From an uncultured Lentisphaerota bacterium (lineage in GTDB: Bacteria; Verrucomicrobiota; Lentisphaeria; Victivallales; UBA1829), in NCBI GenBank assembly GCA_900320095.1, contig ONQZ01000005.1, forward strand, positions 31 to 64,030: DNA of 64,000 nucleotides. The letters are read 5' to 3'. Both the position numbers and the translations under genes were made by a program. Within the stretch, counting starts at the first letter, position 1, and every line of letters starts with the position of its first letter. Below, in pieces: positions 39,321 to 64,000 of this stretch. Below the pieces are notes generated by a model that saw only the letters and a list, made by a program, of their open reading frames with translations, was not told the DNA's origin and searched no databases.

Positions 39321-39359
39321 CTCATCCCCTCGAAAGTATCCCTGCCGCGTTTCAGTCGG

Positions 39360-40304: not shown

Positions 40305-40394
40305 GGAGACAACTCCTGATTGCTATGATGTTGTGCGGAAATCTCCCGGAATCCGGCGCCCGCTTTGTGTTTGTTCGAAATATCTTGAAATTAT

Positions 40395-40422
40395 AATATA
40401 GATTGAAAAATGATTTTTGCAA
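40395..40422 (-). promoter_or_regulatory. sigma70-like promoter candidate for the His-rich membrane protein gene
   Basis: On the minus strand: TTGCAA, a 16-nt spacer, then TATATT, in an AT-rich gap ~90 nt upstream of the ATG at 40304. Confidence 0.3.
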
Positions 40423-40493
40423 GAAATGCGAGGCAGAAAACGATCATTTTTCCTGAAAAAAAGACTCAGCAGGAAAACCGCCGGAAACGCTGT

Positions 40494-40943
40494 CTATCCG
40501 CCGATTGCCTGTTCCAGCAGCCAGTCCGCCAGCTCCGGTTCGATCTCGCGCACCGGGACCATCACGAAATCGCGCCGCGCCGCCTCGGGATGCGGCACGG
40601 TCAGGTCTGGCAGACGAATCGTCTCCCGTCCGAACGCAATGATGTCGAGGTCGAGCGTCCGCGACACATGGTGCGCATGGTCGTTCGGACGCCCGTTGTC
40701 CGCCTCGATCCGCTGACAAACTTTGAGTAAATCCGTGGCACTGCCGTCCCAGAACCCGGACAGCGCGGCGTTGAAAAATTCCGGCGCGCCGGGCTCGCAT
40801 CCGACGGGCGCGGTCTGGATCGGAGACGAAAAACGCCGGATGCGGAATCCGGCGTCGGAGAGAGCTTCACAGGCCCGGCGGAAGGCGGCGGGGACGTCCC
40901 CGAGGTTTCCGCCGAGCGCGATGACGCAGAGCGTTTCAGCCAT
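40494..40943 (-). CDS. folK: 2-amino-4-hydroxy-6-hydroxymethyldihydropteridine pyrophosphokinase
   Basis: VIALGGNLGD...LDLDII...VPHP are HPPK motifs. The ATG overlaps the serA stop. The upstream part of track ORF 40494..41432 is out-of-context shadow sequence. Confidence 0.85.
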   Translation of the reverse strand: MAETLCVIALGGNLGDVPAAFRRACEALSDAGFRIRRFSSPIQTAPVGCEPGAPEFFNAALSGFWDGSATDLLKVCQRIEADNGRPNDHAHHVSRTLDLDIIAFGRETIRLPDLTVPHPEAARRDFVMVPVREIEPELADWLLEQAIGG

Positions 40944-42499: not shown

Positions 42500-42670
42500 G
42501 GGTGTCTCCTTGTGCGTCTTCACGCACGGTTGGGTTGTCCAAAAAAACTTGGAGCATATAATATACACCGTGTGCGCGAAACTTTCCACCGGATTCCGTC
42601 AAATAGTCCCGTTTTGCCGTGAAAATGAGCGGCGGGAAAGGGCGGAACGGCAGATGATGTGTCGCCGCCG

Positions 42671-45139: not shown

Positions 45140-45154
45140 CGCGTCCGCCCGTTG

Positions 45155-46531
45155 TTACAGTTCCATCAATGCGGCGTCGCGCAGGACTTCCGCCACGGTC
45201 GGGTGCGGAAACACCGTCTGCGCAAGGTCGGCGGCGGTCATGCGCTGCGTGATCGCCACCGCCATCGCCGGGATGATCTCGGACGCCGGATTGCCGAGCA
45301 TGCACGCGCCGAGGATGCGCTTCTCCTCGTCCAGCACCAGCTTCATGATGCCGTTTCCGCCCTCGTTTTCCGCCTGGTACCGCCCGCTGAAAAGCAGCGG
45401 CAGCTTGACCGTCTTCACGTTCAGCCCCTTTTCCGTCGCGGTCTCCTCGGTCTCGCCGACGGACGCCGCTTCCGGGTTCGTGTAGATGACCGACGGGATC
45501 GCGTCGTAGCGCATCGTGTCGTCCACGCCGCGGATCACGTTCACCGCCACTTCCGCCTCGCGGTACGCCGTGTGCGCCAGCATGGATACGCCGTTCGCGT
45601 CTCCGGCGGCGAACACGCCCGGCACGTTCGTTTGCATTTTCTCGTCCGTGCGGATGCCGCCGTTCGCGCCGAGTTCGATCCCGAGCGATTCGAGTCCGAT
45701 ATTCCGCGTGTTCGGTTTTCGCCCGGCGGCGACCAGTATCTTGTCTGCCTCCAGCTCGAATTCGTCGCCATTCGCCTTCATGCCGCGGACGCGGCCCGCC
45801 TTAATTGCCTGAATCCGGCTTCCGGTCAGGAATTTGACCCCGCGTGCCGTGTAGTTCCGCTGGAGCAGTGCCGCGATGTCGCGGTCGATGCGACCGCCGA
45901 TCCGGTTGAGCATCTCGACGACCGTCACGTCCGATCCGGCGGAATTGAAATACGACGCCATTTCCAGACCGATCGCGCCCGCGCCCATCACGATGAGTTT
46001 CTTCGGGACCTCGGTCATCGACAGGATTTCCCGGTTCGTGACCGCGAATCCATCCGCGAGCGCTTCCTTCAGCCCGGGGATCGGCGGGACCGCCGCGGAT
46101 GATCCGGTCGCGATGAGTACGTTTTTCCCGGTGAACATCTCTCCGCCCGCCTCGATCACGAACTCGCCCGCCTCGTTTCTGCCCGCCAGCACGCCGTTTT
46201 CGCGTATGACGTTCGCACGGGCTTTCTTCATCTGCATTTCCACGCCCGCGACGAGCTTTTTCACGATCTTGTCCTTGCGTGCCACCACGAACGCATGGTC
46301 GAGCACGGCGTCCTTCGCCGTCACGCCGTATTTCTCCGCGCCGCCCTTCGCATAGTCGTACAGCTTCGCGGAATACAGCATCGTCTTGGTCGGGATGCAT
46401 CCCTCGTTGAGGCAGACTCCCCCCAGCGTTTTCCCTTCGAAGATCGCAGCGTTCAGCCCGAAATGCCCGGCGCGTTCCGCAGCGCGGAATCCGGCGGGGC
46501 CGCCGCCCAGGATCAGCAGATCGTATGTCAT
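45155..46531 (-). CDS. lpdA: dihydrolipoyl dehydrogenase (E3)
   Basis: DLLILGGGPAGF, the redox-active GGVCLNEGCIPTK and a C-terminal HPTVAE. Start set to ATG 46531. Confidence 0.93.
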   Translation of the reverse strand: MTYDLLILGGGPAGFRAAERAGHFGLNAAIFEGKTLGGVCLNEGCIPTKTMLYSAKLYDYAKGGAEKYGVTAKDAVLDHAFVVARKDKIVKKLVAGVEMQMKKARANVIRENGVLAGRNEAGEFVIEAGGEMFTGKNVLIATGSSAAVPPIPGLKEALADGFAVTNREILSMTEVPKKLIVMGAGAIGLEMASYFNSAGSDVTVVEMLNRIGGRIDRDIAALLQRNYTARGVKFLTGSRIQAIKAGRVRGMKANGDEFELEADKILVAAGRKPNTRNIGLESLGIELGANGGIRTDEKMQTNVPGVFAAGDANGVSMLAHTAYREAEVAVNVIRGVDDTMRYDAIPSVIYTNPEAASVGETEETATEKGLNVKTVKLPLLFSGRYQAENEGGNGIMKLVLDEEKRILGACMLGNPASEIIPAMAVAITQRMTAADLAQTVFPHPTVAEVLRDAALMEL

Positions 46532-46562
46532 GTGTTTTATCCTTATGTGAGGTTGTTTGCGT

Positions 46563-47771
46563 TTATGGTTCCGTCCCGCCCGGTTCGAGCTGAAGGGCGA
46601 GTTCATTCAAAAATCCTGCCGCCCGGAGCGCATCGACGCCCGCGCGGTCGTATGCGAGCGTCAGCCGGATCGCCGGATACGCCTCGATCCCGCCTCGTTC
46701 GTCGGCTTTTGTCCGCATGGTGACCGCGCCGATCCCGAGCGCGCAGAGTTCCGGCGGCGTCAGCTCCGGCGTGAAGCAATCCACGCCGTATGTGCTCAGG
46801 TCCGCCACGGAGAACGTCCCTTCCTGAAACTCCTGCGGCTTCGAGGCGAAAACCTTGCAGCGCTCCGTGGCGTTCCGCATCAGCACGGACAGTTCGTCCG
46901 CCGCATACATTTCCGCGCACCGGATGACCGGTTTCAGCGTGCCGGACGATGTTTCCACGTTCAGACGCAGATGCACCGTGTTGTATTCGTAGATCTTGTC
47001 GCCGTGACGCCGCGCGTTCAAATCGGGGTTCTTGACGAGAAGCCGCGTCAGTTCGCGGCAGATCATTTCGCCGGCCGCGAGCCTGTTTTGAGGCGTACAT
47101 CCCGCCAGGACTTTTCGTGCATCGAACACTCTGCTGACGAATCCGGTCTGACCTGCATTTTTCTCGCAAATCTGCCTCATATTGACGCGATCGGCGATCG
47201 TCAGCGGACGCCCGGAATAGATTCCTCTTGTTTTACTCGCGGCCTCATATTGAACAGCGCCAAGCACATCGCGTTCGAGGATTCTTCCGTCCGGGCCGCT
47301 GCCCATAAAAATCGCACTTAAATCCACGCCCAGCTCGTTTGCCGTTTTTCTTGCACGCGGTGAAATCTTCTGCTTTGCGTTCTGCGCCTTTTGAGCGAAA
47401 ACATGCACAGCTGCGGAAGCCGGATTCTTTTCTATCGGAATGTCAACTGTTTCTTCTGTGTGATCCAGTTTTTTCCCCGCCGTTTTGCCAAGTTCATTCA
47501 GCAGCGTTTCCAGCCCGGATTCCTCGAAAGCCGTTGTGCCGGACAGGATGCCGACCGGGCTCCCGACCGCGGCCTCCTCGCCTTCTCCGGTCAGGATACG
47601 CACGAGGAACCCGTCCGATTCCGCCTCGTACTGGAACGTCGCCTTGTCGGTCTCGAGGGAGAAAACGGGCTGCCCTTTGCGGACGTGTTCCCCCTCGCGG
47701 ACCAGCCATTTCGACAGGATCGCGCATTCGTCGGAGACGCCCATCTGGGGCATCCTGATCACGCTCGGCAT
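46563..47771 (-). CDS. 2-oxoacid dehydrogenase E2-like protein (lipoyl domain + E3-binding region + acyltransferase-fold domain with substituted catalytic residues)
   Basis: Lipoyl domain with the SLETDKATFQYEAE lipoyl-Lys context, then PRARKTANELGVDL (PSBD). In the C-terminal domain the canonical DHRxxDG reads YDRAGVDA and (T/S)xSN reads SVAD. Confidence 0.8.
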   Translation of the reverse strand: MPSVIRMPQMGVSDECAILSKWLVREGEHVRKGQPVFSLETDKATFQYEAESDGFLVRILTGEGEEAAVGSPVGILSGTTAFEESGLETLLNELGKTAGKKLDHTEETVDIPIEKNPASAAVHVFAQKAQNAKQKISPRARKTANELGVDLSAIFMGSGPDGRILERDVLGAVQYEAASKTRGIYSGRPLTIADRVNMRQICEKNAGQTGFVSRVFDARKVLAGCTPQNRLAAGEMICRELTRLLVKNPDLNARRHGDKIYEYNTVHLRLNVETSSGTLKPVIRCAEMYAADELSVLMRNATERCKVFASKPQEFQEGTFSVADLSTYGVDCFTPELTPPELCALGIGAVTMRTKADERGGIEAYPAIRLTLAYDRAGVDALRAAGFLNELALQLEPGGTEP

Positions 47772-47798
47772 AATCGTTTCCGCCTGCCTGTCTTGAGT

Positions 47799-48557
47799 TC
47801 AGAGCACGTGGACGCCCGCCGCCCGGAACGCCGCCTTGATCGACTCCGGCGCCTTCGAGTCCGTCACGATCGTGTCGATGTCGGAGAGCTGTGCGAACGT
47901 GAACGGCAGGATCGAGTTCAGTTTCGAGCTGTCCATCAGCATGATCACGCGCCGCGCCGATGCGATGATCGCGCGTTTCAGCACGCATTCGTGCTGGCCG
48001 CCGACGGAGAATCCGGTCGCGTCGGTGTACCCGGAGGCGCACACGAACGCCGTGTCGATGTTCAGCGTCTTGAGCTGGTCCAGCACGTTCAATCCGCATG
48101 TCGAGATCGTTTTCCGCTGGAGCGTCCCGCCCAGCAGGATGACCGTCGGATTCTTCTTCTTGAGCACGATCTCGATCCCGATGTTCGGCGCGGACGTGGT
48201 GATGATCAGGTTGCGGTCCGGCAGTTCGCGCGCCAGCATCATCGCGGTCGACCCGGCGTCGAGGTACATGCTGATGTCCGTCTCGACCAGCGCCGCCGCC
48301 TTCGCCGCGATCTCCTGTTTCAGGTCGCAGTTGCGCTTCTCGCGTTCGCCGTACATGCCCACGCTCACTTCGTAGCTTGTCGGCATGATGCGCGCGCCGC
48401 GTTTCGTGCGGATCAGGAACCGTCTCTGCTCCAGAAACTCCAGGTCCCGGCGGATCGTCATCTCCGACCAGTCGGAAAACTCCTTGGTAAGCTCGGACAG
48501 CGTCACGTCGCCCTTGCGTTCAATGTAGCGTTTGATGGCTTCCTGTCGTTCTTTCAT
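47799..48557 (-). CDS. DeoR family transcriptional regulator
   Basis: N-terminal HTH ERQEAIKRYIERKGDVTLSELTKEFSDWSEMTIRRDLEFLE and a DeoR C-terminal sensor domain. Start set to ATG 48557. Confidence 0.88.
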   Translation of the reverse strand: MKERQEAIKRYIERKGDVTLSELTKEFSDWSEMTIRRDLEFLEQRRFLIRTKRGARIMPTSYEVSVGMYGEREKRNCDLKQEIAAKAAALVETDISMYLDAGSTAMMLARELPDRNLIITTSAPNIGIEIVLKKKNPTVILLGGTLQRKTISTCGLNVLDQLKTLNIDTAFVCASGYTDATGFSVGGQHECVLKRAIIASARRVIMLMDSSKLNSILPFTFAQLSDIDTIVTDSKAPESIKAAFRAAGVHVL

Positions 48558-48732
48558 GGCTTTTCCTTTGCGTGGTTGCGTGGTTGAACAGCGTTTCGAG
48601 TTCGGCGTGCGCACTGCCGCGGGTCCGTTTCGAGCTGCGCGGCCGGACGGCGGCATTGTTTCCTTCCGGCGGTTTCCGGGACCGGCAGTCCGTTCCCTAA
48701 AATATTGCAGCATTATAATTTATCACAGATCG

Positions 48733-49517: not shown

Positions 49518-50093
49518 ATGACTGAATCGTACAACACGACATGCATGCAGAGGCATCTCATTGACCTCGGGACAACTGTGCCCCCGTCCCTCCGTGTCTT
49601 CACGCCCGACGCTCTGTTCCGGGAGCAATCCAAGTTCATTTCCGCCTCAATGCAACTTGATTTCGGGCTCCACTGCGCGCTCGTCATGGAGGCTCGCCAG
49701 GCGAACGGCCTGCACTTCTCTATCCGCGCGCAAGCACCCGAGGCGCCTCAATCCCTGTTCGGTTTCACCTCGGCATCCGCCGTGGAGGTCCTGCCTTCCT
49801 TCCGTGTCGCCGTGGAGTTCACGGCCGCCTCGAAGGAAACCCAGCTTTTCGTGTCGTCGCGAAGCACGGCGCTTCCGCAGTGGGGGATTTATCCTCCCAT
49901 TTCGTTCCGCGGCAGCCTCGATTTCGGCACGGTCATTTCCGTTCGCGGCACCTTCGACTTCGTCCGTTCGCTTTCCAGGGCTGCCGCGAAGCGCGCCTCG
50001 GCCTCGGCCGACGCCCTGCGTCGTTCCCGTCGTTTCGAGGTCCGTCACAACAACTGCGGAGGTCTCGCCTCCGGGAGGGCCCTGCGGCTATGA
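49518..50093 (+). CDS. hypothetical protein (191 aa) upstream of the giant repeat protein
   Basis: From about 49600 onward this frame shows host-like GC3-rich codon usage (ctc gtc atg gag gct cgc cag gcg aac ggc ctg cac ttc...). The start was chosen at ATG 49518 (MTESYN). No family was recognised. Confidence 0.45.
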   Translation: MTESYNTTCMQRHLIDLGTTVPPSLRVFTPDALFREQSKFISASMQLDFGLHCALVMEARQANGLHFSIRAQAPEAPQSLFGFTSASAVEVLPSFRVAVEFTAASKETQLFVSSRSTALPQWGIYPPISFRGSLDFGTVISVRGTFDFVRSLSRAAAKRASASADALRRSRRFEVRHNNCGGLASGRALRL

Positions 50094-50446: not shown

Positions 50447-53400
50447 ATGTCTGAATTTACTAAAGACACTTATCTCCTGCAGGAATCCTTCACCGAACCG
50501 ACTATTGATGTACTGATAGATGAAGGTTACAAAGCATACGATCGTTTCGCGGAAGCCTATCTCAACTACAAAAATGAAACGACAAAGCCGGGAACCTTCA
50601 ATGTTTATGGCGGAAGCTATTCCATGAAGAACTCGGAAGTCCCCGTTGAGATCGGGGCGACGAATATGACCATTTCCAGCGCGCTGTACGAAGGCGGGTT
50701 TGTGGAAGCGAACACGAAGTTCGAACTCACGGCCACGAATTTCATCAATAATGGCACGATCAGTATTATTGACGAGTCGGAAGATACTTATTCCGTCACA
50801 TTTAAGAGCAGCAATGCAGAGTTCGTGAACAATAGCAGCGTGACCGTCAGCAACGCCATTTTTGATGTTGCAACCGTTTCGAACGCTGCCAATGCCACGT
50901 TCGCTCTGACCAATGGCGCCGTGTTCACCGCCGCAAGCGTCACCAACAGCGGTTCCTTCTCTCTGGACAATGCCGCGTTCACCGCCACGACCGTCAACAA
51001 CAACGCCGGTGCCACCTTCAATCTGACGAATGATGCTTCTATTGAACTCGCCGCCGTTACCAACGACGGTACCTTCAATATTGTCAAAGGCAATGTCGCT
51101 GGAAAATTCAGCGGTACTGGCACCATTGAGATCAACACCAATACTCTTGAGGCCAATACTATCGATATTTCCGGTACCGGTACCGTCAACCTGAAAGGTA
51201 TCGCCAGCTCCAAGTATGTTAAGCTCGGAAGTGCAAAAATCGAAGCTGCGACTATTTCCTCCACCAAGCGTGTCGATCTGGATGGTGCTACGCTGAAAGC
51301 CACTACGGCCACTCTTGCCGATATGAGACTTTCCGGAACCAATACTTTTGATTTTGGAAGCCTCACCGCCGGTACGCTCTACATGATGGCAAACAGTCAG
51401 ATCAAGGGTTCTAATATTGGTTCCGAGTCCGGCACGAAAGCTACGATCCAGTCCTGGTCTTCGAATCCTACGGTTTCCATCTCTGGCGAGAACGACCTTT
51501 ATGCGACCATTACGAACAAAGGCACTCTCAACATTGCTGCTGCGGGAAAAATCTATACGGCTTCGATCGTGAACTCCGGTGCAGACTCCAAGATCATCAG
51601 CGACGGTGCGAACGTTGTCCTCGGTTCTGAGGAGAAGAGGGTCAGCCTTTCGAACACCAAAGGCCTTATCGGTCTGGAACACAACGCAACCGTCGTTGCG
51701 TCCTCCATCTCCGGCGACAGCGGCGCCACGTACGAGATCACTGATTCCTCTGTCACTGCGGAATCCCTTTCTCTTACCTCTTCCTGCGCATTTGTCGTCG
51801 AAGGCGTAAGCTCTCTGAATATTGGCACTGTCTCCAGCAACAGCACGATCACACTTCAGAAAGCCACCATCTCTGCTTCCTCCATCAGCGGCGGCAAGGT
51901 CAGCATCCCCAAGCAATATGATACCGGAAACGGAACTCCCGAAGAGCCGGCAATGGCTGACAACACCGTTACGTTCAGCGGCGATAACAGCATCCTCTCC
52001 ACCATCACCAACAACGGCGCGATCATCGTCAACGACACGCTGACTGCCGGTGCTGTCACCAACAACGGCGCGATCACCGTCAACGGCACGCTGACTGCCG
52101 GTGCTGTCACCAACAACAGCGGCAGCTCCCTCACGCTCGCCAAAAACGCTACCCTGAATGCTTCTTCTCTGACGGTCGATGGCGGCTCCCTCTCCCTGGG
52201 AGTGGGCAGCACCGTGGATCTCGGCGAAGAAGGCGATCTCATCAGCAGCGTTGGCCTCACCATCACGTCTGCAACTGTGATTGCCGACGAGATCAAGGCA
52301 GAAGGGAAAGCCCTTTCTTTCGTTACGTCCAATATCACGGCTAATACGATTACCGCCAACACTGCTGAGGTTCGTGGCAATGCGACCATGGATGTCGGTA
52401 CCATCGGCGATACAGTTATGACGATCAAGAGCATTAATGTAGACAAACGCACGACGATCACGGACAGCTCGATCGGTACTGGTTCTGTCAACACTCTGCT
52501 CAATGTTGATTTCGTTGGAACGAACACCTTCGATGCTATCACCAACGGAGGCAAAGTTACTGTTTCCGGTTCCCTGACCGCGACCAGCATCACCAATGGC
52601 GAAAACGCTACCTTCACCGTTTCCGCCGCCGGCACTCAGCTGAACACCAAGTTCACCGGCACAATCACGTTCGCCGACGGCGCTACCCTCGGCAAATCCT
52701 CCTTCGGTGCGGACAGCGTCATCACCGCCACTAACTTCGCGATTGCGGATGAAGCCGCAGTTACTCTCACGGTTGGCGAAGCCACGAAGCTTAACGCCAA
52801 CATCTCCTCCGGCACGATCAACCTTGTTTCCGGTTTTGACGCTGAAACGGCGCCCGAATGGGACCTCTACCAGCTCATTAATGGTACGATTGGTGATGAT
52901 GTCACGTTTACGGTTGACGGAGTGCAAGCGGGATCCATCAAGCTCGGAGACGAGACCTATGGCCTTATCAAGCTTGATACCGGTCTTTGGCTTACGAAAG
53001 GCCAGGACAACGAGAAGCTTTACATCAATGCCGCTTATGCTGGTTTAACCCCTGGTGCGAAAACTGATGATGGTCACATCTACGGCTACAACGCGTTCAG
53101 CAGCCTGAGAGATCCTGCCCTGTCCTACAACGCCACAGGCGTTGGTCAGGATATCAAAGATGCCGCTAAGAACGCGAAGAATCTCGTCCTCACCGGTTCG
53201 ATCACTGACGGCAGAACCCTGTTCTACACGGATCAGCCCACTGTTACCATCACCACCACCGGCGAGAACGGCGCTTCCTTCACGGAACGCCTCTATCTGA
53301 TGCACGATATCATCTACAAGAAGGAAGGTGACTCCTTCGTAGTCTACGACAAGGACGGCGAAACTCCGATCACTCAAGCCACGCTCCCCGAGTTCATTCT

Positions 53401-56400
53401 CGCTGAAGGCGCCAAGCTGAACGGTGGTTCCATGCTGAAAGTCGGCGAATCGCTGGATAAAGATGATTACAGTGAAGAAACGGGCTTCACGCGTACCGCA
53501 GGCGCGGTCAAACTGACTGTCAACGGCGACATCAAGTCCTTCATTCAGGTCAATCCCTATTCGTCCGTGAAGGTTTCCAAGACCGGTTCCGTGATCAGCG
53601 AGTCTAACGGCACCGGCGTGACCGAGAATGAAGATCGGCAGAGCACCTACATCCGCGTGAACGGCAGCCTGACTGTCAACGGCGATCCTGATGCTGAACT
53701 CAAAGTGCTCCAGTTTAAGATGCAGCGTCTCACCTTCACGGATGGCGGCACCCTGGCGCTGAACAACACGAATGCCCAGTTCAGCCGCATCCGTTTCTAT
53801 GATGAAGGCTTCACCATTCCGACCGGAAAGGCCACGATCACGGTGACGAACTCCATCGTGAACAACTTCGAGAACAATGCTCTCGACAACCTCGAAGGCG
53901 GCTATAACTTCTTCGTTTACGGTGCCTCTGAGACTGCGGCAGTTAAGAGCAAACAGACTGTCGAACTGACTCTCGACAACTCCGAGATGAAAGTCTCGGA
54001 TAAGGCCGTTTTCAATCCGAACGCCAACACCACGATCAACGTCAAGAACGCCTCTACTTTGACCGTTGGCAATGTCACGAACGACGGCGCGATCAATCTC
54101 GAGAATGGAGCCGAGCTCGACGTCAACGGCGCTGTTACCAACAATGCCACTGGCGTCATCAACGTCGGCAAGGCCGGTGACGAGGATGAATCCGAACTGT
54201 TCGCCAACAGCATCGAGAACGCCGGCACGATCACGGTTACCGACTCCACGCTGAATGCGACGGTAGTCAATACCAGTGCGGTTGGCGCAAAATTCACGGT
54301 TGGCGGCACCTCCACGCTGAATATTTCCGGAACCGGCAGCTCGCTCACCGGCACCATCACGCTGGCTGACGGCGCAAACGTCAAGGCGACCATCGCCAGG
54401 GGCGGCACGCTCAATGTTGCGGCTGACACTGCGGCAACTCTCGCTGAGGGTTCTTCTGTTGCTTCCTTGATCACGAACGCCGGTACGCTCACGCTCGATG
54501 GCGTTACGAAGACCGGAAGAATCACGAACAATGGTACGGTTAACGGCAGCGCGAGCACCGTCGGCGGTATCATCAACAATGTCGGAAGCGTCTCCCTCAC
54601 GGGCAAGAGCTTCAGCAGCGTCACGGTCAAAGACGGAACAGTGTCTCTGATCGCCGAAAGTGCTGATACCGGAATCGCGGTCGGTTCGATCACGAACGGC
54701 ACGAAGGGCACAACAAGGGCCGCCGCCATTGACGGAACCTTTGACGCCAATGGCAATGTGACGGGCTCCGGCGCGATCACGAACAACGCCGGCAGCATCA
54801 AAGTCACGGGCAACCTGACCCTGACCCCGAACAGTACGACTGGTGTTCGTCCCGCTATCACCAACGGCTCCATCTATACCTCTGGCAATATTGTTCAGGT
54901 TGGCGTCGGCAGCATTGAGGTCACCGGCGCGCTGACTGCCGGCGACTTCGTGAACAATGCCGGCGCCACGGCTCAGGTCAGCAGCGCCGAGCTCGTCAGC
55001 CTCACGAACAACGGTTCGTTCACCGCCACCAGCGCCGTGACTGCCGGCGCGATCACGAACGGCACCGCGGCAACGACGGATCCCGTCGCTGCTGCTGTGG
55101 AAGGTTCGTTCTCCGCTGCTGGTCTGACCGCTTCCGGCGACCTCGTGAACAACGCCGGTTCCGTCTCCGTCACCGGCAACGCTGTGTTCAAGAAGGACAC
55201 CACTCTGTTTGACATCACGAACTCCGCTTCCGGCCTCACCGGCATCGAGGAGTCTGTCGGCTTCAAGGTCACCGGCGCGCTGACTGCCGGCGACTTCGAA
55301 AACAAGGCCGGCGCCACGGCTCAGGTCGGCAGCGCCGAGCTCTCCAGCCTCACGAACAACGGTTCGTTCACCGCCACCGGCACCGTGACTACCACCGGTG
55401 AGATCGCCAACAGTGAATCTGGCGAAATCATTGTCTCCGGCAAGATCACCGGCGCATCCGTCGGCAACGTCGGCACGATCGAAGCCGGCAGCATTAAAAC
55501 CACCGGTGAATATGGCCTCGGAAACTCCGGCACGATCGGAAGCACCTCCGCGACGGCGATTGAGACCACCATTCTCTCCAACTCCGGCACGATCTATGCA
55601 AGCACTCTGAATGCCGCCAGCATCAACAACAGCTCCGCGACCGCTTCGATCACCGCCGTCAGCATTGAAGGTACTGGCACGGCCAGCCTCATTGAGAACG
55701 CCGGTTCGATCACCGCCACCAACGTGAGCGCTGCCACTGTTTCCACCAATGGCGCATCGTTCACGGTCGGCGGCGAATCCTCCGAGCTGAATATCAGCAA
55801 AAAGCTCACCGGCACCATCACGCTGGCTGACGGCGCAAACGTCACCGCAATGGTCAAGGGCGGCACGCTCGACGTCGAAAACGGTTCCACCGTTTCTCTT
55901 ACCGGCGCCGAAGGCAATACCGCCGCTGTCACGAACCTCGGCAATCTCACGATCGCCGGCGGCACGATCGGCGCTGTCACGAACAAACAGGTAGTTGTTG
56001 ATAAGGATACTGTCAAAGGCACGCTCACCGTCGAATCCGATAAAGCGATTCAGACGGGCGCCTTCACGAACAATGCCATTGTCAACGTCAACTCCGCGTT
56101 CACGGTCAAAGGCAACTTCAACAACCAGGCAGGTGCAACGATCACGATCGATGCCACCAAGTTCGATTTCACGGAATCCAATACCGTGTGTGCCATCGAG
56201 GTGACCGGAACCCTGACGAACGCCGGCGAGATCAGCGTCACCGGTGGTGCTCCGGGAGAATACGACCTCATCGTCAAGAACGACGGCACTGACAAGGGCG
56301 TGTATCTCTACAAGAATAGCGATCCGGATGATCCGGTCGACATGAGCTACCTGCTTGTGTACAGCGATCTTGCAAGCCAGTATAAACCCGGTGAACCGTT

Positions 56401-58780
56401 CCCGTTTGGCGGTCATGAATACGTGTATGCTCTGAGTGCTTTCGCCACTGCCACTGCGATGACGAAGATTGGGGAAGACACCGAAGAGATCGATTTCGTG
56501 ACGCAGAGCGGCACTTATGGCAACCTGAATCTGACCCTCTTTGCCGATCAGGAGATTAACGTCTACGTGGTCAACGGAACCGGCAAAAAGGTCTCCGCCG
56601 ATCTCAACTTCAACAACCTGAGCATTGCTGCGTCCGAGGCTGGGGAAGATGAAGACGTTGGGGCTATCACTTTCAACAATGACGTCGTGACCGGTGCCGA
56701 AGTTGCCAATACGACGGTCGCCATCTCCACCGCGACGGTCGACTTCCAGGGCGCCAACTTCTCCGCAAGCAAGAGCGTCACCATCAAGGATGATGCGCAC
56801 GTCACGTTCAGCGACGATTTCAGCGCTGCTGCTGCCACCATCACCGGTTCCGAGGTTGTGTTCGGCGGCAATGCCGCCTTCGCCGGCAATGCCGCCATCA
56901 CCGCCGGTTCCGAGGTTTACTTCCGTGATGAAGCGAACTTCGCCGGCACTGCGAACATCAGCGGTTCCACGGTTTACTTCCGTGATGAAGCGAACTTCGC
57001 CGGCAATGCGACCATCAGCGGTTCCACGGTTGCGTTCGGCGGCGCTGCCACATTCTCCAACGGAGAAACGGACGGTGCCGTGAATGCGACCATCAGCGGT
57101 TCCACGGTTGTGTTCGGCGGCGCTGCCACGGTTGAAGGCCTTCTCAAGCTCACCGGATCGGAAGTTACCGCAGAAGCTGAGATTACCGCCAGCTCCACCA
57201 ACCTGGATAAGAATTCTACGCTCAACCTCTCGACGGAAGACGCCAAGCTGGGCGACCTCACGACTGCAGCGGGCAGCAAGATCAACCTGACGTATCAATC
57301 CAAGCTGAGTTTCACAGCTACCGCCGTCCAGGGCAACTTTGACATTGATGTGACCGGCCTCACGAGCACGAAGAACACTGCTTCTGCGACGATCACGGGC
57401 ATTCCCTCTGTCACTAAGGTCTCCATCGTTGGAAACAACACCGAAAACAACGTTGCGAAATACTTCAATTACAACACTGAGAACAAAACCCTCACTCTGA
57501 TCAAAGAAGCCTGCAACGAGATCAAGGTCAACAGCAAGTCGTCCCTCGACAACGCTCTTAAGTATACTTGGGAAGGCGATGATGGCGAGACGTACTACGC
57601 CGACAATGTGATCGTTCAGGATGTGACCTATGCAGACGCTCTGTATTTCGTGAACGCTGCCAGAACGGCTCATGTCAATCAGTACATCACGATTGAGGGC
57701 GGCGAGTTCCAGAAGAGTGTGTTCGGCGGCAAAAAGCAGGAAACTGCGGGCACCGGCAGATTCGATGTCGTTGATCTCGGTGGGAATCTCAACCTCACGA
57801 TTGAAGACGGTCATTTTACAAGGACCGTCGTTGCCGGCGACAACATCAAGGTCAAAGGCCTGTTCTATCGTGAAGGCACGATCACCACGACCATCAGTGG
57901 CGGTACGTTCGACTACAACTTTGCCGGCGGTCTGCTTTACAACCTCACGGATGTTACTTCCCAGGCAATCGTCACGGGCACGAGCCTGACGATCAACAGC
58001 GAAACCGCCGATACAATCTTCAATGATACGGTTTACGGTGGTAACTTCTCGCAGAAGAAGGCCGGTTCCAACTGCACGTTCATTGACGAGAAAGCCATTG
58101 TCAGAATTGAGGCCGGTGAAGAGAATACGATCCAGATGAAAGCTCTGATCGTTGGTTCCTATGGCAACGGCGTCATCGAAAAAGGTACGGAACTTACCCT
58201 GACCGGTAACGGCGACAACCTCGAGATCGAGTCCGTCTGGGGCGGCTGCGGCAGTGATTACTACACGGAAGATGCAAAACGTGAGTATGTCACCACGATG
58301 GCTGCGAATGCGACGAGAACGCTGACGTTCGAAGGCTTCAAAAACACGTTCAACTGCACGTCGATCCGCGGCTTCTCCGATGTCATCGTCAAGTCCGAAA
58401 CGGAAGTTACGCTGATCAACACGGATAAGTACGGCCTGGCCGATGCCAGCAACTGGACGTTCGAATTCGGCAGCTCGCTGAACGGCGCGTTCGCGAACAA
58501 CTTCGCCGGCGACGATCTGACCCTGACCGGAATCGAAGCTATGAAGACGGTAGCTGAAGGTGGGGACCCCTGGGTCATCTGCGACAATATCAACTTCGAG
58601 ACATTCGCTTTCAAGGGTATCAAGAGCATCAACGGTGCTACCGGTGACGACCTCGTGTTTGCCGACAACGCCTACACGTTTGCTGCTGGTGACAACCAGT
58701 ACAAGCTCTCCTTCGGCGATTATAATGTGGGTGAGAGTGAGGAAACGAGCAGCGCCATGTACCTCACGCGTCTTGCCTAA
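50447..58780 (+). CDS. giant (2,777 aa) beta-helix-type repeat protein, adhesin/Pmp-like; no N-terminal signal peptide, no recognisable C-terminal barrel or sorting signal
   Basis: AAAGGAAAAAACA precedes the ATG. There are hundreds of 17-25 aa repeats of the type (T/S)xxNxGxhxh..., including GGA/FxxN-like units (FGGAATFSNG, FRDEANFAGNATI) reminiscent of chlamydial Pmp repeats. The acidic N-terminus MSEFTKDTYLLQESFTEPTIDVL has no hydrophobic h-region. Cys content is very low. Confidence 0.9.
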   Translation: MSEFTKDTYLLQESFTEPTIDVLIDEGYKAYDRFAEAYLNYKNETTKPGTFNVYGGSYSMKNSEVPVEIGATNMTISSALYEGGFVEANTKFELTATNFINNGTISIIDESEDTYSVTFKSSNAEFVNNSSVTVSNAIFDVATVSNAANATFALTNGAVFTAASVTNSGSFSLDNAAFTATTVNNNAGATFNLTNDASIELAAVTNDGTFNIVKGNVAGKFSGTGTIEINTNTLEANTIDISGTGTVNLKGIASSKYVKLGSAKIEAATISSTKRVDLDGATLKATTATLADMRLSGTNTFDFGSLTAGTLYMMANSQIKGSNIGSESGTKATIQSWSSNPTVSISGENDLYATITNKGTLNIAAAGKIYTASIVNSGADSKIISDGANVVLGSEEKRVSLSNTKGLIGLEHNATVVASSISGDSGATYEITDSSVTAESLSLTSSCAFVVEGVSSLNIGTVSSNSTITLQKATISASSISGGKVSIPKQYDTGNGTPEEPAMADNTVTFSGDNSILSTITNNGAIIVNDTLTAGAVTNNGAITVNGTLTAGAVTNNSGSSLTLAKNATLNASSLTVDGGSLSLGVGSTVDLGEEGDLISSVGLTITSATVIADEIKAEGKALSFVTSNITANTITANTAEVRGNATMDVGTIGDTVMTIKSINVDKRTTITDSSIGTGSVNTLLNVDFVGTNTFDAITNGGKVTVSGSLTATSITNGENATFTVSAAGTQLNTKFTGTITFADGATLGKSSFGADSVITATNFAIADEAAVTLTVGEATKLNANISSGTINLVSGFDAETAPEWDLYQLINGTIGDDVTFTVDGVQAGSIKLGDETYGLIKLDTGLWLTKGQDNEKLYINAAYAGLTPGAKTDDGHIYGYNAFSSLRDPALSYNATGVGQDIKDAAKNAKNLVLTGSITDGRTLFYTDQPTVTITTTGENGASFTERLYLMHDIIYKKEGDSFVVYDKDGETPITQATLPEFILAEGAKLNGGSMLKVGESLDKDDYSEETGFTRTAGAVKLTVNGDIKSFIQVNPYSSVKVSKTGSVISESNGTGVTENEDRQSTYIRVNGSLTVNGDPDAELKVLQFKMQRLTFTDGGTLALNNTNAQFSRIRFYDEGFTIPTGKATITVTNSIVNNFENNALDNLEGGYNFFVYGASETAAVKSKQTVELTLDNSEMKVSDKAVFNPNANTTINVKNASTLTVGNVTNDGAINLENGAELDVNGAVTNNATGVINVGKAGDEDESELFANSIENAGTITVTDSTLNATVVNTSAVGAKFTVGGTSTLNISGTGSSLTGTITLADGANVKATIARGGTLNVAADTAATLAEGSSVASLITNAGTLTLDGVTKTGRITNNGTVNGSASTVGGIINNVGSVSLTGKSFSSVTVKDGTVSLIAESADTGIAVGSITNGTKGTTRAAAIDGTFDANGNVTGSGAITNNAGSIKVTGNLTLTPNSTTGVRPAITNGSIYTSGNIVQVGVGSIEVTGALTAGDFVNNAGATAQVSSAELVSLTNNGSFTATSAVTAGAITNGTAATTDPVAAAVEGSFSAAGLTASGDLVNNAGSVSVTGNAVFKKDTTLFDITNSASGLTGIEESVGFKVTGALTAGDFENKAGATAQVGSAELSSLTNNGSFTATGTVTTTGEIANSESGEIIVSGKITGASVGNVGTIEAGSIKTTGEYGLGNSGTIGSTSATAIETTILSNSGTIYASTLNAASINNSSATASITAVSIEGTGTASLIENAGSITATNVSAATVSTNGASFTVGGESSELNISKKLTGTITLADGANVTAMVKGGTLDVENGSTVSLTGAEGNTAAVTNLGNLTIAGGTIGAVTNKQVVVDKDTVKGTLTVESDKAIQTGAFTNNAIVNVNSAFTVKGNFNNQAGATITIDATKFDFTESNTVCAIEVTGTLTNAGEISVTGGAPGEYDLIVKNDGTDKGVYLYKNSDPDDPVDMSYLLVYSDLASQYKPGEPFPFGGHEYVYALSAFATATAMTKIGEDTEEIDFVTQSGTYGNLNLTLFADQEINVYVVNGTGKKVSADLNFNNLSIAASEAGEDEDVGAITFNNDVVTGAEVANTTVAISTATVDFQGANFSASKSVTIKDDAHVTFSDDFSAAAATITGSEVVFGGNAAFAGNAAITAGSEVYFRDEANFAGTANISGSTVYFRDEANFAGNATISGSTVAFGGAATFSNGETDGAVNATISGSTVVFGGAATVEGLLKLTGSEVTAEAEITASSTNLDKNSTLNLSTEDAKLGDLTTAAGSKINLTYQSKLSFTATAVQGNFDIDVTGLTSTKNTASATITGIPSVTKVSIVGNNTENNVAKYFNYNTENKTLTLIKEACNEIKVNSKSSLDNALKYTWEGDDGETYYADNVIVQDVTYADALYFVNAARTAHVNQYITIEGGEFQKSVFGGKKQETAGTGRFDVVDLGGNLNLTIEDGHFTRTVVAGDNIKVKGLFYREGTITTTISGGTFDYNFAGGLLYNLTDVTSQAIVTGTSLTINSETADTIFNDTVYGGNFSQKKAGSNCTFIDEKAIVRIEAGEENTIQMKALIVGSYGNGVIEKGTELTLTGNGDNLEIESVWGGCGSDYYTEDAKREYVTTMAANATRTLTFEGFKNTFNCTSIRGFSDVIVKSETEVTLINTDKYGLADASNWTFEFGSSLNGAFANNFAGDDLTLTGIEAMKTVAEGGDPWVICDNINFETFAFKGIKSINGATGDDLVFADNAYTFAAGDNQYKLSFGDYNVGESEETSSAMYLTRLA
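52007..52108 (+). repeat. tandem 51-nt (17-aa) coding repeat, two near-identical copies
   Basis: ACCAACAACGGCGCGATCAtCGTCAACGaCACGCTGACTGCCGGTGCTGTC is repeated immediately with ~2-3 substitutions (TNNGAIIVNDTLTAGAV / TNNGAITVNGTLTAGAV). Confidence 0.9.
54918..55378 (+). repeat. 348-nt-period duplication inside the giant gene (~113-nt near-identical blocks at 54918-55030 and 55266-55378)
   Basis: AGGTCACCGGCGCGCTGACTGCCGGCGACTTCG...CTCACGAACAACGGTTCGTTCACCGCCACC occurs twice, 348 nt apart, with a handful of mismatches. Confidence 0.9.
56906..57019 (+). repeat. tandem 57-nt (19-aa) coding repeat, two near-identical copies plus degenerate copies to ~57130
   Basis: GSEVYFRDEANFAGTANIS / GSTVYFRDEANFAGNATIS, followed by GSTVAFGGAATFSNG... 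and GSTVVFGGAAT... Confidence 0.9.
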
Positions 58781-58822
58781 TCAACCAACAACAAACCTAA
58801 CAAGGAAAGGATAACACAACCT

Positions 58823-58969
58823 ATGAAACACATGCAAATCATTGCGCAGGAGCCCTACGAGGCTCCTGCGATCTCCGAAATCGCCCCGGTCACGCTGATT
58901 TACGGGTCTGCCGGGGGCGGTTCCGGAACTGGTGAATCTGATGATAACTCCGAAGGTATTGATGACTGA
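58823..58969 (+). CDS. candidate RiPP-type precursor peptide (48 aa): MKHMQIIAQEPYEAPAISEIAPVTLIYGSAGGGSGTGESDDNSEGIDD
   Basis: Not in the ORF track (under 60 aa). AAGGAAAGGA RBS lies ~12 nt upstream of the ATG. It lies 42 nt after the giant-gene stop and is immediately followed by a strong terminator, then by PqqD/kinase/GT/peptidase genes. The composition is bipartite: a hydrophobic/Pro N-half and a Gly/Ser/Thr then Asp/Glu C-half. Confidence 0.55.
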   Translation: MKHMQIIAQEPYEAPAISEIAPVTLIYGSAGGGSGTGESDDNSEGIDD

Positions 58970-59011
58970 TTCATTCATGCATATTTGCATGATCAGTTAA
59001 AATCAGAACTC

Positions 59012-59050
59012 TCTGCATTGCGGCGGCAACGCCGCAATGCAGAACTTTTT
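59012..59050 (+). terminator. strong rho-independent terminator/attenuator between the peptide gene and the enzyme genes
   Basis: Perfect 12-bp GC-rich stem TGCATTGCGGCG/CGCCGCAATGCA (extendable to 14 bp) with a GCAA (GNRA) tetraloop, followed by AACTTTTT. Confidence 0.8.
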
Positions 59051-59065
59051 CCAGCCTATTTTACT

Positions 59066-60013
59066 ATGAATTCAAGTGTTCAGGACAGTCAGGAAATCAA
59101 AACGCATCATCAGGCGTACCGCCGGATCGTGTTGAATCTGCACGGCGGCGGTCACATCATATTATGTACAGAACCCCCGGAAGAGAAGATACTGTTTGAT
59201 GGCTTTACGCAGCTTTTATGTATGGAAGCAAATCCTTCCGAACGGGAATCGGGAACATTTGATCTGGAGTTTGTTCCCCCGTCCGAGCTTCCGGAAAAAC
59301 GACATCCGCTGATCAAAACGGCATTGACCGAGGTGGCGTATACGGAGGACTGGAGTCATATTCTGATCGGCGGATGGAAAAAGGCTCCCCATGACAAACA
59401 CTACTATAAAAACTATCTCTGGCTGACGGGACTGATCTTCGCCGGGATGAACGCGCTTTTGCGCGGGGAGAAGGCGGTATTGGTGCATTGTACGGCGCTG
59501 GAGACGGACCGCGGCGTGGTGCTGCTGTTCGGGGAAAGCGGGATGGGGAAAAGCACGGTATCGGCGCGGTGGCGCGCGCACGGAGGGAAATGTATTTCCG
59601 ACGACATGGCGCTGATGGATTTCAGCGGAGGGGATACGGTGTATGTTCGGCGGATGCCGACGTGGAGCGCATGTCGCGAGGGGAAAAATGAGTGGAACTA
59701 CCCGGCTGGGGAGGAACTGCCGTTGATCGGTGTCCTGGCGCTTGGGCGCAATGAGAGCAGGACCGGCGGGGACCAGATCGTGGAATTGAGCGCGGCGCAG
59801 TATTACGCGCAGTGCTACCGGTCGATGTTCTACTGGAACCTGCTTTATGCGGACAAACTGCCGGAGGCGATGCAGCGGCGTCTGGGAGACCGCATCCGGG
59901 CGCTGACGAACATCATCACGGGGAAATACCCGCCGCGTGCGCTGCTGACCGTACTTGAGGGGAATCCGATCCCGGTGATCGAATCCTATCTGGAAAGCCT
60001 TGGTGTGCGATGA
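59066..60013 (+). CDS. HPr kinase-like (HprK C-terminal domain family) serine kinase
   Basis: HCTALETDRGVVLLFGESGMGKSTVSARW...GKCISDDMALMD matches the HprK P-loop plus downstream DD motif. Start moved to ATG 59066 because the track start (TTG 58985) would place the terminator hairpin inside the CDS. Confidence 0.75.
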   Translation: MNSSVQDSQEIKTHHQAYRRIVLNLHGGGHIILCTEPPEEKILFDGFTQLLCMEANPSERESGTFDLEFVPPSELPEKRHPLIKTALTEVAYTEDWSHILIGGWKKAPHDKHYYKNYLWLTGLIFAGMNALLRGEKAVLVHCTALETDRGVVLLFGESGMGKSTVSARWRAHGGKCISDDMALMDFSGGDTVYVRRMPTWSACREGKNEWNYPAGEELPLIGVLALGRNESRTGGDQIVELSAAQYYAQCYRSMFYWNLLYADKLPEAMQRRLGDRIRALTNIITGKYPPRALLTVLEGNPIPVIESYLESLGVR

Positions 60014-61050
60014 AACCGAAAGTGTCGATTATCATCCCCGTGTACAACGGGGAAAAGACTGTGCGGGAAAGCTTGGAATCGGTTTTAACGCAGTCCCTGC
60101 GCGAAATCGAGGTGCTTTGCATCAACGACGGTTCGACGGACGGGACGGCGGCTGTCCTGCGTGAAATGGCCGCGGGCGACAGCCGCGTGCGGCTTTACGG
60201 ATTCGAGAAGAACCATGGGATCGTGCTGGCGGTGAAGACGGGGCTGCTGGAAGCGCGCGGGGACTATGTGATGTTCGTGGACGCGGACGACATCCTGCTG
60301 CCGGGGGCGATCGAGAACGCGGTGCGTCTGATCGAGCAATATGACGTGGACATCCTGCAGTTCGCGATTCGCGTAAAACACCCGAAAGGGGCAAACATCG
60401 GCGCATTCATGAAATCGCTGCAGTGTTTGCCGATGGAATCGTCCGGGGCAAAGATCCTGTACGACTGCTTCTGTATGCACCGGTTCCCGCACAACGTTTA
60501 TACGAAGATCTATCGGAGCAGTGTTTGCCGTACCGCAGCGGAAAACATGCCGGACATTGAGCTTAAACAATTCACGGACCTGTACCTGTCGTTCTTTTTT
60601 CTGTACTTTGCGAAGACATTCCGGAGCGTGGTGGAGGGGCCGTACTACGAATATCGGTTCCTCGGGGCCGGGGTGTTTTCCGCGCCACCGACAGCGTTGC
60701 AATTCGAGCAGATGTGCGCGACAAGCGAAATCCTGCCGCTGATCGAAGAATTCCTTCGGGACCGGCACGAATACGCCGCCCGGAAGTTCCTGGTGGACTC
60801 CATCGGCGTCATCCTGCGATGCGGCGTGCTGGACAAACTGATGGGGCTGCCCGAGATCACGGCGGAGACGATCAAGCTGGCTGAGGAACACTGGGGCAGC
60901 GACCTGATCTACGAATTTATCCGGGAAACCGGGCTGCTTGACGTGCCGTGCGAAACCCGGCGCGGCATCGTAACAAAGCTGGCCGGGGAAAACCGGAAAC
61001 TCCGGAACAACCAAACAACGATAACGATATCAAATACGAAGGGAATCTGA
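60010..61050 (+). CDS. family 2 glycosyltransferase
   Basis: VSIIIPVYNGEKTVRESLESVLTQS...CINDGSTDGT...FVDADD are classic GT2 (GT-A, DxD) blocks. ATGA overlap with the kinase gene. Confidence 0.9.
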   Translation: MKPKVSIIIPVYNGEKTVRESLESVLTQSLREIEVLCINDGSTDGTAAVLREMAAGDSRVRLYGFEKNHGIVLAVKTGLLEARGDYVMFVDADDILLPGAIENAVRLIEQYDVDILQFAIRVKHPKGANIGAFMKSLQCLPMESSGAKILYDCFCMHRFPHNVYTKIYRSSVCRTAAENMPDIELKQFTDLYLSFFFLYFAKTFRSVVEGPYYEYRFLGAGVFSAPPTALQFEQMCATSEILPLIEEFLRDRHEYAARKFLVDSIGVILRCGVLDKLMGLPEITAETIKLAEEHWGSDLIYEFIRETGLLDVPCETRRGIVTKLAGENRKLRNNQTTITISNTKGI

Positions 61051-63832: not shown

Positions 63833-64000
63833 TCAAATATACCAGACCGGAATCTGAAGCACATTTTCCCGAAGTCGTCCAGGCTGTGGACAGTTGCAGA
63901 GAATTGCGCCGGAACCTCGCTTCGAGGATTTGACCTTGTCCAGAATCTGGAATGCTGCAGTTTCCGTTGCTTTCACGTTGGCGCTCTGCTTAATCTCAAT
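63833..64000 (-). CDS. C-terminal end of an unidentified ORF entering from the right window edge
   Basis: The reverse strand is open from the window edge: IEIKQSANVKATETAAFQILDKVKSSKRGSGAILCNCPQPGRLRENVLQIPVWYI*. No family was recognised. Confidence 0.3.
   Translation of the reverse strand: MEIKQSANVKATETAAFQILDKVKSSKRGSGAILCNCPQPGRLRENVLQIPVWYI

Follow-up and report, generated by a model that had tools for sequence, protein, structure and literature searches.

The stretch of DNA analyzed here (hereafter the window) comprises 64,000 nt of contig ONQZ01000005.1 from an uncultured Lentisphaerota bacterium. Near its 3' end lies an operon whose genes are all on the forward strand and, from the kinase gene on, mostly overlap or nearly abut. 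A gene for a giant protein is followed by a 48-codon open reading frame (ORF), an RNA hairpin, a P-loop protein resembling HPr kinases, a family-2 glycosyltransferase (GT2), a stand-alone PqqD-type protein, a soluble protein resembling S26 peptidases and a PF14907 nucleotidyltransferase (Table 1). The short ORF is our subject. A reading made from the letters alone (the sequence-only reading) had proposed that it encodes a modified-peptide precursor with a leader and a core, and that a leaky terminator separates it from the enzyme genes. We find that the ORF is a real gene with a lasso-type leader, and that it is probably the precursor (A) peptide of a lasso-derived, cyclase-less pathway resembling those for peptides synthesized on the ribosome and modified after translation (RiPPs). 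The products would be linear, phosphorylated, acidic peptides.

Table 1. Features of the peptide operon in the window (aa, amino acids; pI, isoelectric point; RRE, RiPP recognition element)
Feature	Coordinates	Strand	Remarks
Giant 2,777-aa protein gene	50447..58780	+	Thr/Gly/Ala/Ser/Asn-rich, pI 4.3
Shine-Dalgarno sequence GAAAGGA of the peptide gene	58805..58811	+	11 nt before the ATG; conserved A/C-rich 42-nt spacer
Peptide gene	58823..58969	+	48 codons plus stop; encodes MKHMQIIAQEPYEAPAISEIAPVTLIYGSAGGGSGTGESDDNSEGIDD
Predicted leader, residues 1-28, MKHMQIIAQEPYEAPAISEIAPVTLIYG	58823..58906	+	YxxPxI = Y12, P15, I17; ends at conserved V/I-x-G
Predicted core, residues 29-48, SAGGGSGTGESDDNSEGIDD, plus stop	58907..58969	+	Net charge about -6.5; five Ser/Thr
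RNA hairpin plus AC-TTTTT	59012..59050	+	Conserved stem; putative leaky terminator or expression damper
ScmC/HPr-kinase-like P-loop protein, 315 aa	59066..60013	+	Putative precursor Ser/Thr kinase; GESGMGKST and SDDM invariant
GT2	60010..61050	+	Accessory; 0-3 copies in relatives
Stand-alone PqqD-type RRE, 86 aa	61053..61313	+	Pfam PqqD E = 4.7e-17
Soluble S26 (SEC11/SipW-type) peptidase-like protein, 205 aa	61321..61938	+	Putative leader peptidase
PF14907 nucleotidyltransferase, 397 aa	61942..63135	+	Accessory; last operon gene

The 48-codon ORF is a real, conserved gene. Coordinates and a terminator scan agree with the earlier description of an ORF with a good ribosome-binding site that starts 42 nt past the TAA of the giant gene, with no terminator-like site in the spacer between them. 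The spacer (window 58778-58825) is highly conserved in close relatives. Of 23 distinct peptide genes in the family, 16 have GAAAGGA 9-13 nt ahead of the start codon. A word-indexed search found five relatives. Further ones came from a profile search that covered 1.84 billion representatives, from a scan of the loci with a hidden Markov model (HMM) of the leader, and from a back-translated pattern scan of metagenomes. All searches combined gave 34 distinct peptides of 40-57 aa, every one of them from ruminant metagenomes or metagenome-assembled genomes labelled Lentisphaeria, Victivallales or Victivallaceae. The peptide had been called unannotated; this is right in that it has no name, but its exact 48-aa sequence was already in a public protein collection as a gene prediction. 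When the 16 codons of the leader block are compared with those of three related loci (L001, L032 and L033; relatives carry L numbers), the window shows one, three and four synonymous changes, respectively, and no nonsynonymous change. The insertions and deletions that distinguish the tails of homologs are all in frame, and an ORF of 40-57 codons is always kept. The peptide and giant genes of the window share a reading frame, with one TAA between them. The same arrangement recurs in L019, L021 and L025 and not elsewhere, about the one-in-three chance expectation over the loci, and a read-through fusion of giant and peptide was thus rejected.

The N-terminal half of the peptide, which the sequence-only reading took for a leader, is conserved across the family and does match lasso-peptide leaders. 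Its pattern is Y-E-A-P-x-I-x-E/D-I-x-P-V-T, then V-x-G, with Y12 and P15 invariant and E10, E13, I20, P22 and V23 kept in at least 90% of family members. Among the 34 peptides, the motif Tyr stands at residue 10-13, and its distance to the conserved Gly is 16 or 18 residues (17 once); the Gly is at Y+16 in 20 of them. The residue at -3 to this Gly is Val in 22 of 34 and Ile or Leu in seven, and otherwise Thr, Cys or Ala. In lasso precursors, the leader motif is YxxPxL at -17 to -12 (PMC10368454), and its counterpart in the window is Y12-E-A-P15-A-I17. Reciprocal profile tests were made with 36 precursors from the supplement of the same paper. The 20-residue leader HMM of the family matched leepeptin (E = 3.4e-4), SyanA (9e-4), and sviceucin and chaxapeptin (1.2e-3). 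In the reverse direction, an HMM of the 36 lasso leaders was run against 9,907 six-frame ORFs from the window and the loci, and the top 24 were all family peptides; single E-values in that search are weak (1-9), and the evidence is the ranking. On these comparisons the leader is lasso-type.

Past the conserved Gly, the tail is 11-28 residues long (median 19) and hypervariable in both sequence and length. Asp makes up 23% of its residues, Gly 20%, Glu 12%, Pro 11% and Ser 9%; Lys, Arg and His together account for 1.4%, and Cys does not occur. A Ser or Thr occurs no more than four residues past the Gly in 30 of 34 tails and no more than seven past it in all. The acidic window tail with its five Ser/Thr was described correctly, and genes for an RRE, a kinase, a GT2 and a nucleotidyltransferase lie downstream from it. 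The sequence-only reading had proposed a search for homologous peptides beside homologous kinase and PqqD genes and a check on the conservation of leader and core. Such peptides were found, with the leader conserved; in the tail it is the composition that is kept and not the sequence. The last residue varies, and only one of the 34 peptides ends in Ser, which excludes C-terminal Ser phosphorylation of the paeninodin type.

The closest solved relatives of the PqqD-type protein are the RREs of lasso systems, namely TbiB1 (E = 3.3e-6), 9x8z/9x90 and TfuB1, although the NCBIfam lasso_PqqD models score it below their cut-offs. Where a lasso cluster would have its B2 protease, the operon encodes the S26-like protein. 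In nine homologs of the latter, Ser16 (in GNSM), His54 (in VHR) and G68-D-N-N71 are invariant. These boxes align with the catalytic boxes of human SEC11A and SEC11C (profile E = 0.007), and the protein matches TIGR02228 at 2.3e-9 and 37 bits (cut-off 52). It thus has the Ser, His and Asp boxes of S26 peptidases (GxSM, HR and GDN), and its 205 residues include no hydrophobic segment or membrane anchor of the kind these enzymes have at the N terminus, with the active site on the trans side of the membrane. The C-terminal half is family-specific (∼100 aa, pI 11.7), and its charge of about +16 is complementary to that of the polyanionic tail. Compared with SEC11, SipW and archaeal signal peptidases (MEROPS S26B), the GxSM, VHR and GDNN boxes are shared and the predicted cleavage site obeys the -3/-1 rule. 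Unlike them, the window protein is soluble, it has an extra basic C-terminal domain, and its presumed substrate is not a Sec signal peptide. The lasso register, in which Tyr at -17 places the cut past Y+16, and the -3/-1 rule lead to the same predicted cut in 20 of 34 family members. In the window, cleavage would thus follow the conserved V/I-x-Gly28.

One relative links this peptidase with export. In L027 (9180-11537), a 785-aa ORF carries an S26-like domain N-terminal to an ABC exporter (ABC_membrane plus ABC_tran) of the MsbA/TAP/HlyB/bacteriocin type. To our knowledge, no S26-ABC fusion has been described. The arrangement is like that of C39 peptidase-containing ABC transporters, where a cytoplasmic peptidase is likewise N-terminal to an exporter of the same superfamily, and by this analogy it speaks for a leader that is removed as the peptide is exported. 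It differs from them in that S26 Ser and His take the place of the C39 Cys, the presumed site is V-x-G rather than double glycine, and the fusion is found in L027 only, the window peptidase being free-standing.

The kinase-like protein has the Walker A motif GxSGxGKS and the downstream DD of the HPr kinase/PEPCK class. G156-E-S-G-M-G-K-S-T164 and S178-D-D-M181 are invariant in 14 homologs that are 54-73% identical to the window protein. The NCBIfam matches are to ScmC (35.1 bits; cut-off 125) and to HprK-related kinase A (8.6e-7, 28 bits; cut-off 200), those to Pfam Hpr_kinase_C and PEPCK_ATP are weak and below cut-offs, and the precomputed Pfam assignment in the public collection is PF27840 ScmC. 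A GTDB-wide scan with the kinase alignment returned nine loci only, all from rumen Lentisphaeria. A longer, TTG-started ORF (58985..60013) runs through the hairpin, and the sequence-only reading had preferred the ATG at 59066. The gene callers behind the public collection all start the kinase at the equivalent ATG (315 aa), so this correction stands; the N termini of homologs align only from about residue 20 of the 315-aa protein. No recognizable Shine-Dalgarno sequence precedes the kinase ATG (59044-59068, TTTTTCCAGCCTATTTTACTATG). The kinase gene without such a sequence and the peptide gene with a conserved one fit a high precursor:enzyme ratio.

Kinases and sugar-adding enzymes of these kinds are known from lasso peptides. 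HPr-kinase homologs phosphorylate lasso precursors, at the C-terminal Ser in paeninodin and its relatives, and BsfK phosphorylates Ser3 of the core in a reaction accelerated by the RRE. A PF14907 enzyme adds hexose to the phospho-Ser of pseudomycoidin (PMC8498205). With these clusters (paeninodin PadeA/K, ThcoK, SyanK, pseudomycoidin PsmA/K/N and Bradymonas BsfA/B1/K/N) the window and its relatives share the Y/WxxPxL/I leader motif near the N terminus, the stand-alone PqqD/B1 RRE, the HPr-kinase homolog, the PF14907 enzyme, acidic Asp/Pro/Gly-rich cores and a stand-alone ABC exporter. This is the accessory set of a phosphorylated lasso peptide, and an ordinary tailored lasso precursor of the paeninodin, pseudomycoidin or BsfA type, with B2 and cyclase encoded elsewhere in the genome, has to be considered. 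We regard this as very unlikely. The window and 47 loci, 468 kb read in all six frames, contain no SGGxDS PP-loop and thus no signature of the Asn-synthetase-like lasso cyclase C. On the four long contigs (L008, L017, L019 and L021), no called gene has an Asn_synthase or transglutaminase Pfam match, and B2 is replaced by a dedicated S26-like peptidase. Nor does the junction between leader and core look like that of a lasso precursor, which has Thr (rarely Ile or Val) at -2 and Gly, Ala, Ser or Cys at the start of the core. Here -2 varies (Y, A, R, H and others), and so does +1 past the conserved Gly (S, D, E, G, L, T, K, Q, A, W); the conserved Thr24 falls at -5 or -7; and the spacing from motif to Gly takes three values (16, 17 or 18). 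The tails, at 11-28 aa, have few bulky residues that could serve as a plug, and the window core has one Ile only. The window system also differs from phosphorylated lasso clusters in that V-x-G replaces Thr(-2), leader removal is assigned to the S26-like protein, the core is hypervariable, a giant gene is always attached, and the host belongs to the phylum Lentisphaerota. Most economically, the pathway is read as lasso-derived, with cyclase and B2 protease either lost or absent from the start.

Other systems pair a kinase-like protein with PqqD. ScmC and ScmD of the SynChlorMet cassette (TIGR04249/TIGR04248, PF27840) are the best NCBIfam matches of our kinase and PqqD proteins, but neither match reaches the equivalog cut-off: ScmD scores 47.1 bits (cut-off 100). 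SynChlorMet is defined by its radical-SAM/SPASM partners ScmE and ScmF, and no called gene of the window operon or its relatives has a radical-SAM Pfam match. The HPr-rel-A system (TIGR04352 plus TIGR04353) likewise consists of a kinase-like protein and a PqqD protein, and the scores here are again below the curated cut-offs (PqqD_rel_X 1.2e-5, 26 bits, against 35). We know of no precursor described for it. In the literature searched (ScmC, SynChlorMet, PF14907, HPr-rel-A and Lentisphaerae RiPPs) there is no description of the system reported here. Its parts are known singly, i.e., the lasso leader, the B1 RRE, the HPr-kinase-type kinase, PF14907, the S26 fold and the terminator past the precursor gene; the combination was not found in that literature.

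The genes keep a conserved order. Loci were fetched via the peptide or via the kinase and mapped with phmmer and HMMs, and both routes gave the same map. The order is giant, peptide, kinase, optional GT2, PqqD, S26, of which peptide, kinase, PqqD, S26 holds in essentially all loci, with the PF14907 nucleotidyltransferase, zero to three GT2 genes and an ABC exporter as accessories. In L017, a second giant-like gene lies between peptide and kinase. L021 (10957-11193) and also L022 have a broken PqqD gene, in pieces of 29 aa and 46 aa, with no S26 gene after it; these appear to be decaying copies of the system that still have giant, peptide and kinase. All giants that precede a homologous peptide have in common a C-terminal module of about 200 aa (window 58058-58777). 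It is carried by the window giant and by those of L001, L005, L014, L017, L019, L021, L025, L026, L029, L031 and L034-L047. Its pattern is VGSxGxG..LTG..IWGGCSxD..R.LTFTGF.G.L.C..I.GFS.V..NWTFE.GS.L.G.F.NDF.GD.L, ending M-x-L-T-x-x-A-COOH, and it may be a secretion or anchoring signal. A module-bearing giant lies directly upstream of the peptide in 23 of the 24 loci with enough upstream sequence (phmmer maps), which bears out the earlier view of a genuine peptide gene in the orientation of the giant. Neither Pfam nor NCBIfam gave a match to the full-length window giant, which also lacks an N-terminal signal peptide; the module profile has no credible match in the PDB; and a homolog search with the C-terminal 230 aa of the giant gave one match only. 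The bodies of the giants diverge quickly, whereas spacer, leader and enzymes stay conserved.

A second giant (2,126 aa; L019 11865-18245) lies downstream from the S26 gene in L019, and it has AIDA-like strand-loop-strand repeats, Peptidase_C10, arylsulfotransferase and RTX calcium-binding repeats. AIDA-like repeats of this kind are heptosylation targets. With such domains, this protein hints at what the giants may be, namely secreted arrays of adhesins or enzymes.

Given this adjacency, the true substrate of the enzymes could be the giant, as a secreted, adhesin-like protein that they phosphorylate, glycosylate or process, with the peptide as adaptor, chaperone or co-secreted partner instead of a matured natural product. 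The shared module, the Thr/Ser/Asn-rich, acidic giants without signal peptides, the AIDA-like (a glycosylation-target kind) and RTX repeats of the neighboring giant in L019, the resemblance of the ABC exporter to type I secretion and bacteriocin exporters, and a GT2 copy number of 0 to 3 are all in keeping with such a role. On the other hand, short leaders are what RREs bind, and within the locus the small peptide alone has one of lasso type. The leader HMM, run over all giants, found no RRE-type motif. The leader-like motif at the N terminus of the window giant (QESFTEPTIDVL) is absent from homologous giants and was set aside as chance. Further, no membrane-fusion or outer-membrane components of type I secretion were seen in the clusters. 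On balance, we consider the giant a rather unlikely substrate.

Between the peptide and the enzyme genes, the window has a hairpin whose arms (59012-59025 and 59030-59043) form 14 perfect pairs, nine of them G-C, around a GCAA loop. After AC, a run of five T follows (59046-59050), so that the region has the G+C-rich stem-loop and U-run of a rho-independent terminator. The hairpin alone folds at -27.5 kcal/mol; the 111-nt region around it has z = -7.6 against dinucleotide shuffles, and none of 200 shuffles folds as well. Rfam gave no match better than E = 0.47 over 58500-59300. For the sequence-only reading, absence of the hairpin from homologous loci would have been a refutation, and the hairpin occurs family-wide. 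In most loci, the stem is 12-17 bp long and starts 29-50 nt past the peptide stop (at +77 in L025); L017 and L027 lack it. Loci of the QEPYE clade (window, L001, L005, L014, L034, L035, L038, L045, L042 and L046) have the stem between the genes, and in most of them T4-7 follows it; L046 and L040 have a weak run only. The hairpin could have been taken as limited to this clade. That idea was overturned by stems within the 5' coding regions of the kinase gene, since the LEPYE and K-EPYE clades have the homologous stem inside the first ∼20 kinase codons. There the palindrome CTGCAT(G/C)AC...GT(C/G)ATGCAG encodes L-H-D/H-G-G-x-I-V-M-Q, and a U4 run follows in the LEPYE clade only, with none in the K-EPYE clade.

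Several results show that the hairpin is under selection as RNA. When 16 distinct hairpins are aligned, they share a 12-pair consensus in which seven of 12 pairs have compensatory changes. Overall, 96.4% of alignment cells are paired, neither the pairing nor the covariation is matched by any of 500 shuffles, and slid registers of the alignment pair at 23%-52%. The real codons of the coding stems are more stable than the mean synonymous recoding in eight of eight loci, the fraction of recodings at least as stable being 0.000 to 0.22. The loop is not conserved (TTAC in L014, GCTTTTA in L005, and others elsewhere), and the GNRA tetraloop was rejected as a feature. The intergenic stem itself has the look of a remnant from the 5' end of an ancestral kinase gene: CCGTCTGCATCAC is common to the stems of L038 and L045 and to the coding sequence of L043, and in another frame the window stem reads LHCGGNAAMQN. 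Similarity of the window stem to the present kinase codons is modest (13/15 nt, p ∼0.008).

The earlier idea of a GCAA-loop hairpin and T-run acting as a leaky terminator is thereby changed in part. The stem is selected and does lie between precursor and enzymes, but the T-run is clade-limited and the loop incidental. We infer that a leaky intrinsic terminator would be one clade's form of a more general, expression-damping hairpin. The 22 nt between the stem and the kinase ATG leave no room for a new promoter, and with no Shine-Dalgarno sequence there, enzyme expression must come from read-through. A terminator between mccA and mccB of the microcin C operon is documented (PMC6495379). The window resembles it in having a hairpin and U-run directly past a short precursor gene and before the enzyme genes. 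It is unlike mccA-mccB in that termination here is predicted and that the same stem is coding, with a short U-run or none, in other clades. A separate, small hairpin (TCATGCA-TATT-TGCATGA, 58975-58992) lies just past the peptide stop; L014 has a similar stem (CATGC-CAGTTT-GCATG), and GCATGATCAG is common to the window and L001.

With a conserved hairpin immediately downstream, the ORF might be mainly a regulatory upstream or leader ORF, or even a noncoding spacer, that tunes termination by its translation or only by its RNA, the peptide itself having no function. The codons for (A)QEPYEAPA at the start of the conserved block (58845-58870) could be cited in favor: the first eight block codons form a perfect 10-bp palindrome (CGCAGGAGCC-CTACGA-GGCTCCTGCG) and are near-invariant at synonymous sites within the QEPYE clade. 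As a conserved structure, however, this palindrome is unsupported, for it shows no covariation in the family and 64 of 500 shuffles score as high. Across clades, what is conserved is the amino-acid sequence, with synonymous substitutions, and the frame survives many indels in the tail. With its stop codon 44 nt ahead of the hairpin, the ORF ends at too great a distance for occlusion by ribosomes, and the leader specifically matches lasso leaders of the RRE-binding kind. A mainly regulatory role is extremely unlikely.

Taken together, the notion of a precursor peptide in a cyclase-less, lasso-derived pathway receives from us a probability of roughly 60%. In this pathway, so far found only in rumen Lentisphaeria/Victivallales, the YEAPxIxEI segment of the leader would be bound by the PqqD/B1-type RRE, which would present the peptide to the kinase for phosphorylation at Ser29 or a near neighbor. 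In the window locus, the PF14907 nucleotidyltransferase and the GT2 would probably extend the phosphate with one or more sugars. The S26 peptidase, its basic C-terminal half gripping the polyanionic tail, would remove the leader past V/I-x-Gly28 in accordance with the -3/-1 rule, and the linear product of ∼20 residues would be exported by the ABC exporter where one is encoded. The hairpin would hold enzyme expression low relative to the giant and the peptide, by partial termination in the window and by blocking the first kinase codons in other clades.

Several points weigh against this interpretation. Expression and modification of the peptide are deduced from sequence, and so is kinase activity, from motifs in a protein whose NCBIfam scores are far below cut-offs. 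The kinase profile finds only insignificant P-loop matches in the PDB, and its AlphaFold model (from a 14-sequence alignment) has a predicted local distance difference test (pLDDT) score of 55, with the P-loop region below 50. The S26-to-SEC11 match is marginal (E = 0.007), and the single-sequence model of that protein has a pLDDT of 33. The window operon encodes no ABC exporter, and in L024 and L027, both fetched via the kinase, no peptide was detected. Beyond the nearby Ser/Thr, the tail has no conserved residue, which is unusual in a modified core. Finally, the strict adjacency to giant genes is unexplained by a free-standing RiPP model. The probability that remains after the explanations named above belongs to something not yet conceived.

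Several neighboring genes fall outside the system. A 191-aa ORF (49518-50093, forward strand) lies just before the giant gene, and the reverse strand from 36184 to 48713 carries housekeeping genes (a GH35 beta-galactosidase, an HPPK-domain protein, 2-oxoacid dehydrogenase E1/E3/E2 and a DeoR regulator). At its other end, the operon meets convergent genes (window ∼63833-64000 and beyond; L008 15011-20147). Their products (AAA_14/DUF4143, DUF499 and a KAP-NTPase-like protein) are reminiscent of a defense-island neighborhood.

If the precursor interpretation is right, this would be a RiPP-like pathway that reuses the recognition logic of lasso peptides (leader motif, B1 RRE and precursor kinase) with no lasso made, and in which an S26 signal-peptidase homolog has gained the role of leader peptidase. 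We found neither point described in the literature searched. The peptide is also a first candidate substrate for the large, uncharacterized family of ScmC-like kinases paired with PqqD, and in uncultured Lentisphaeria of the rumen it would tie giant proteins of surface type to a small peptide that is modified. The predicted leader/core boundary, the candidate phosphosite and the enzymes are defined enough for heterologous reconstitution. The hairpin, for its part, is a clean case of one RNA structure that selection has kept in two settings, between genes as a terminator-like element and within coding sequence as a stem.

A broader possibility, which we hold only tentatively and think somewhat improbable as a whole, is that of an undescribed RiPP class. 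In it, a lasso-type leader and RRE would have been rewired to a cytoplasmic SEC11/SipW-type peptidase and an HPr-kinase-like enzyme, making linear, phosphorylated, sometimes glycosylated, polyanionic peptides that work with the upstream, non-Sec giant. The peptide could then be, for example, a cation-loading or folding cofactor of the giant, a surface-anchoring partner, or a co-exported ligand. A joint role of this kind would explain why tail and giant diversify together as the enzymes stay conserved.

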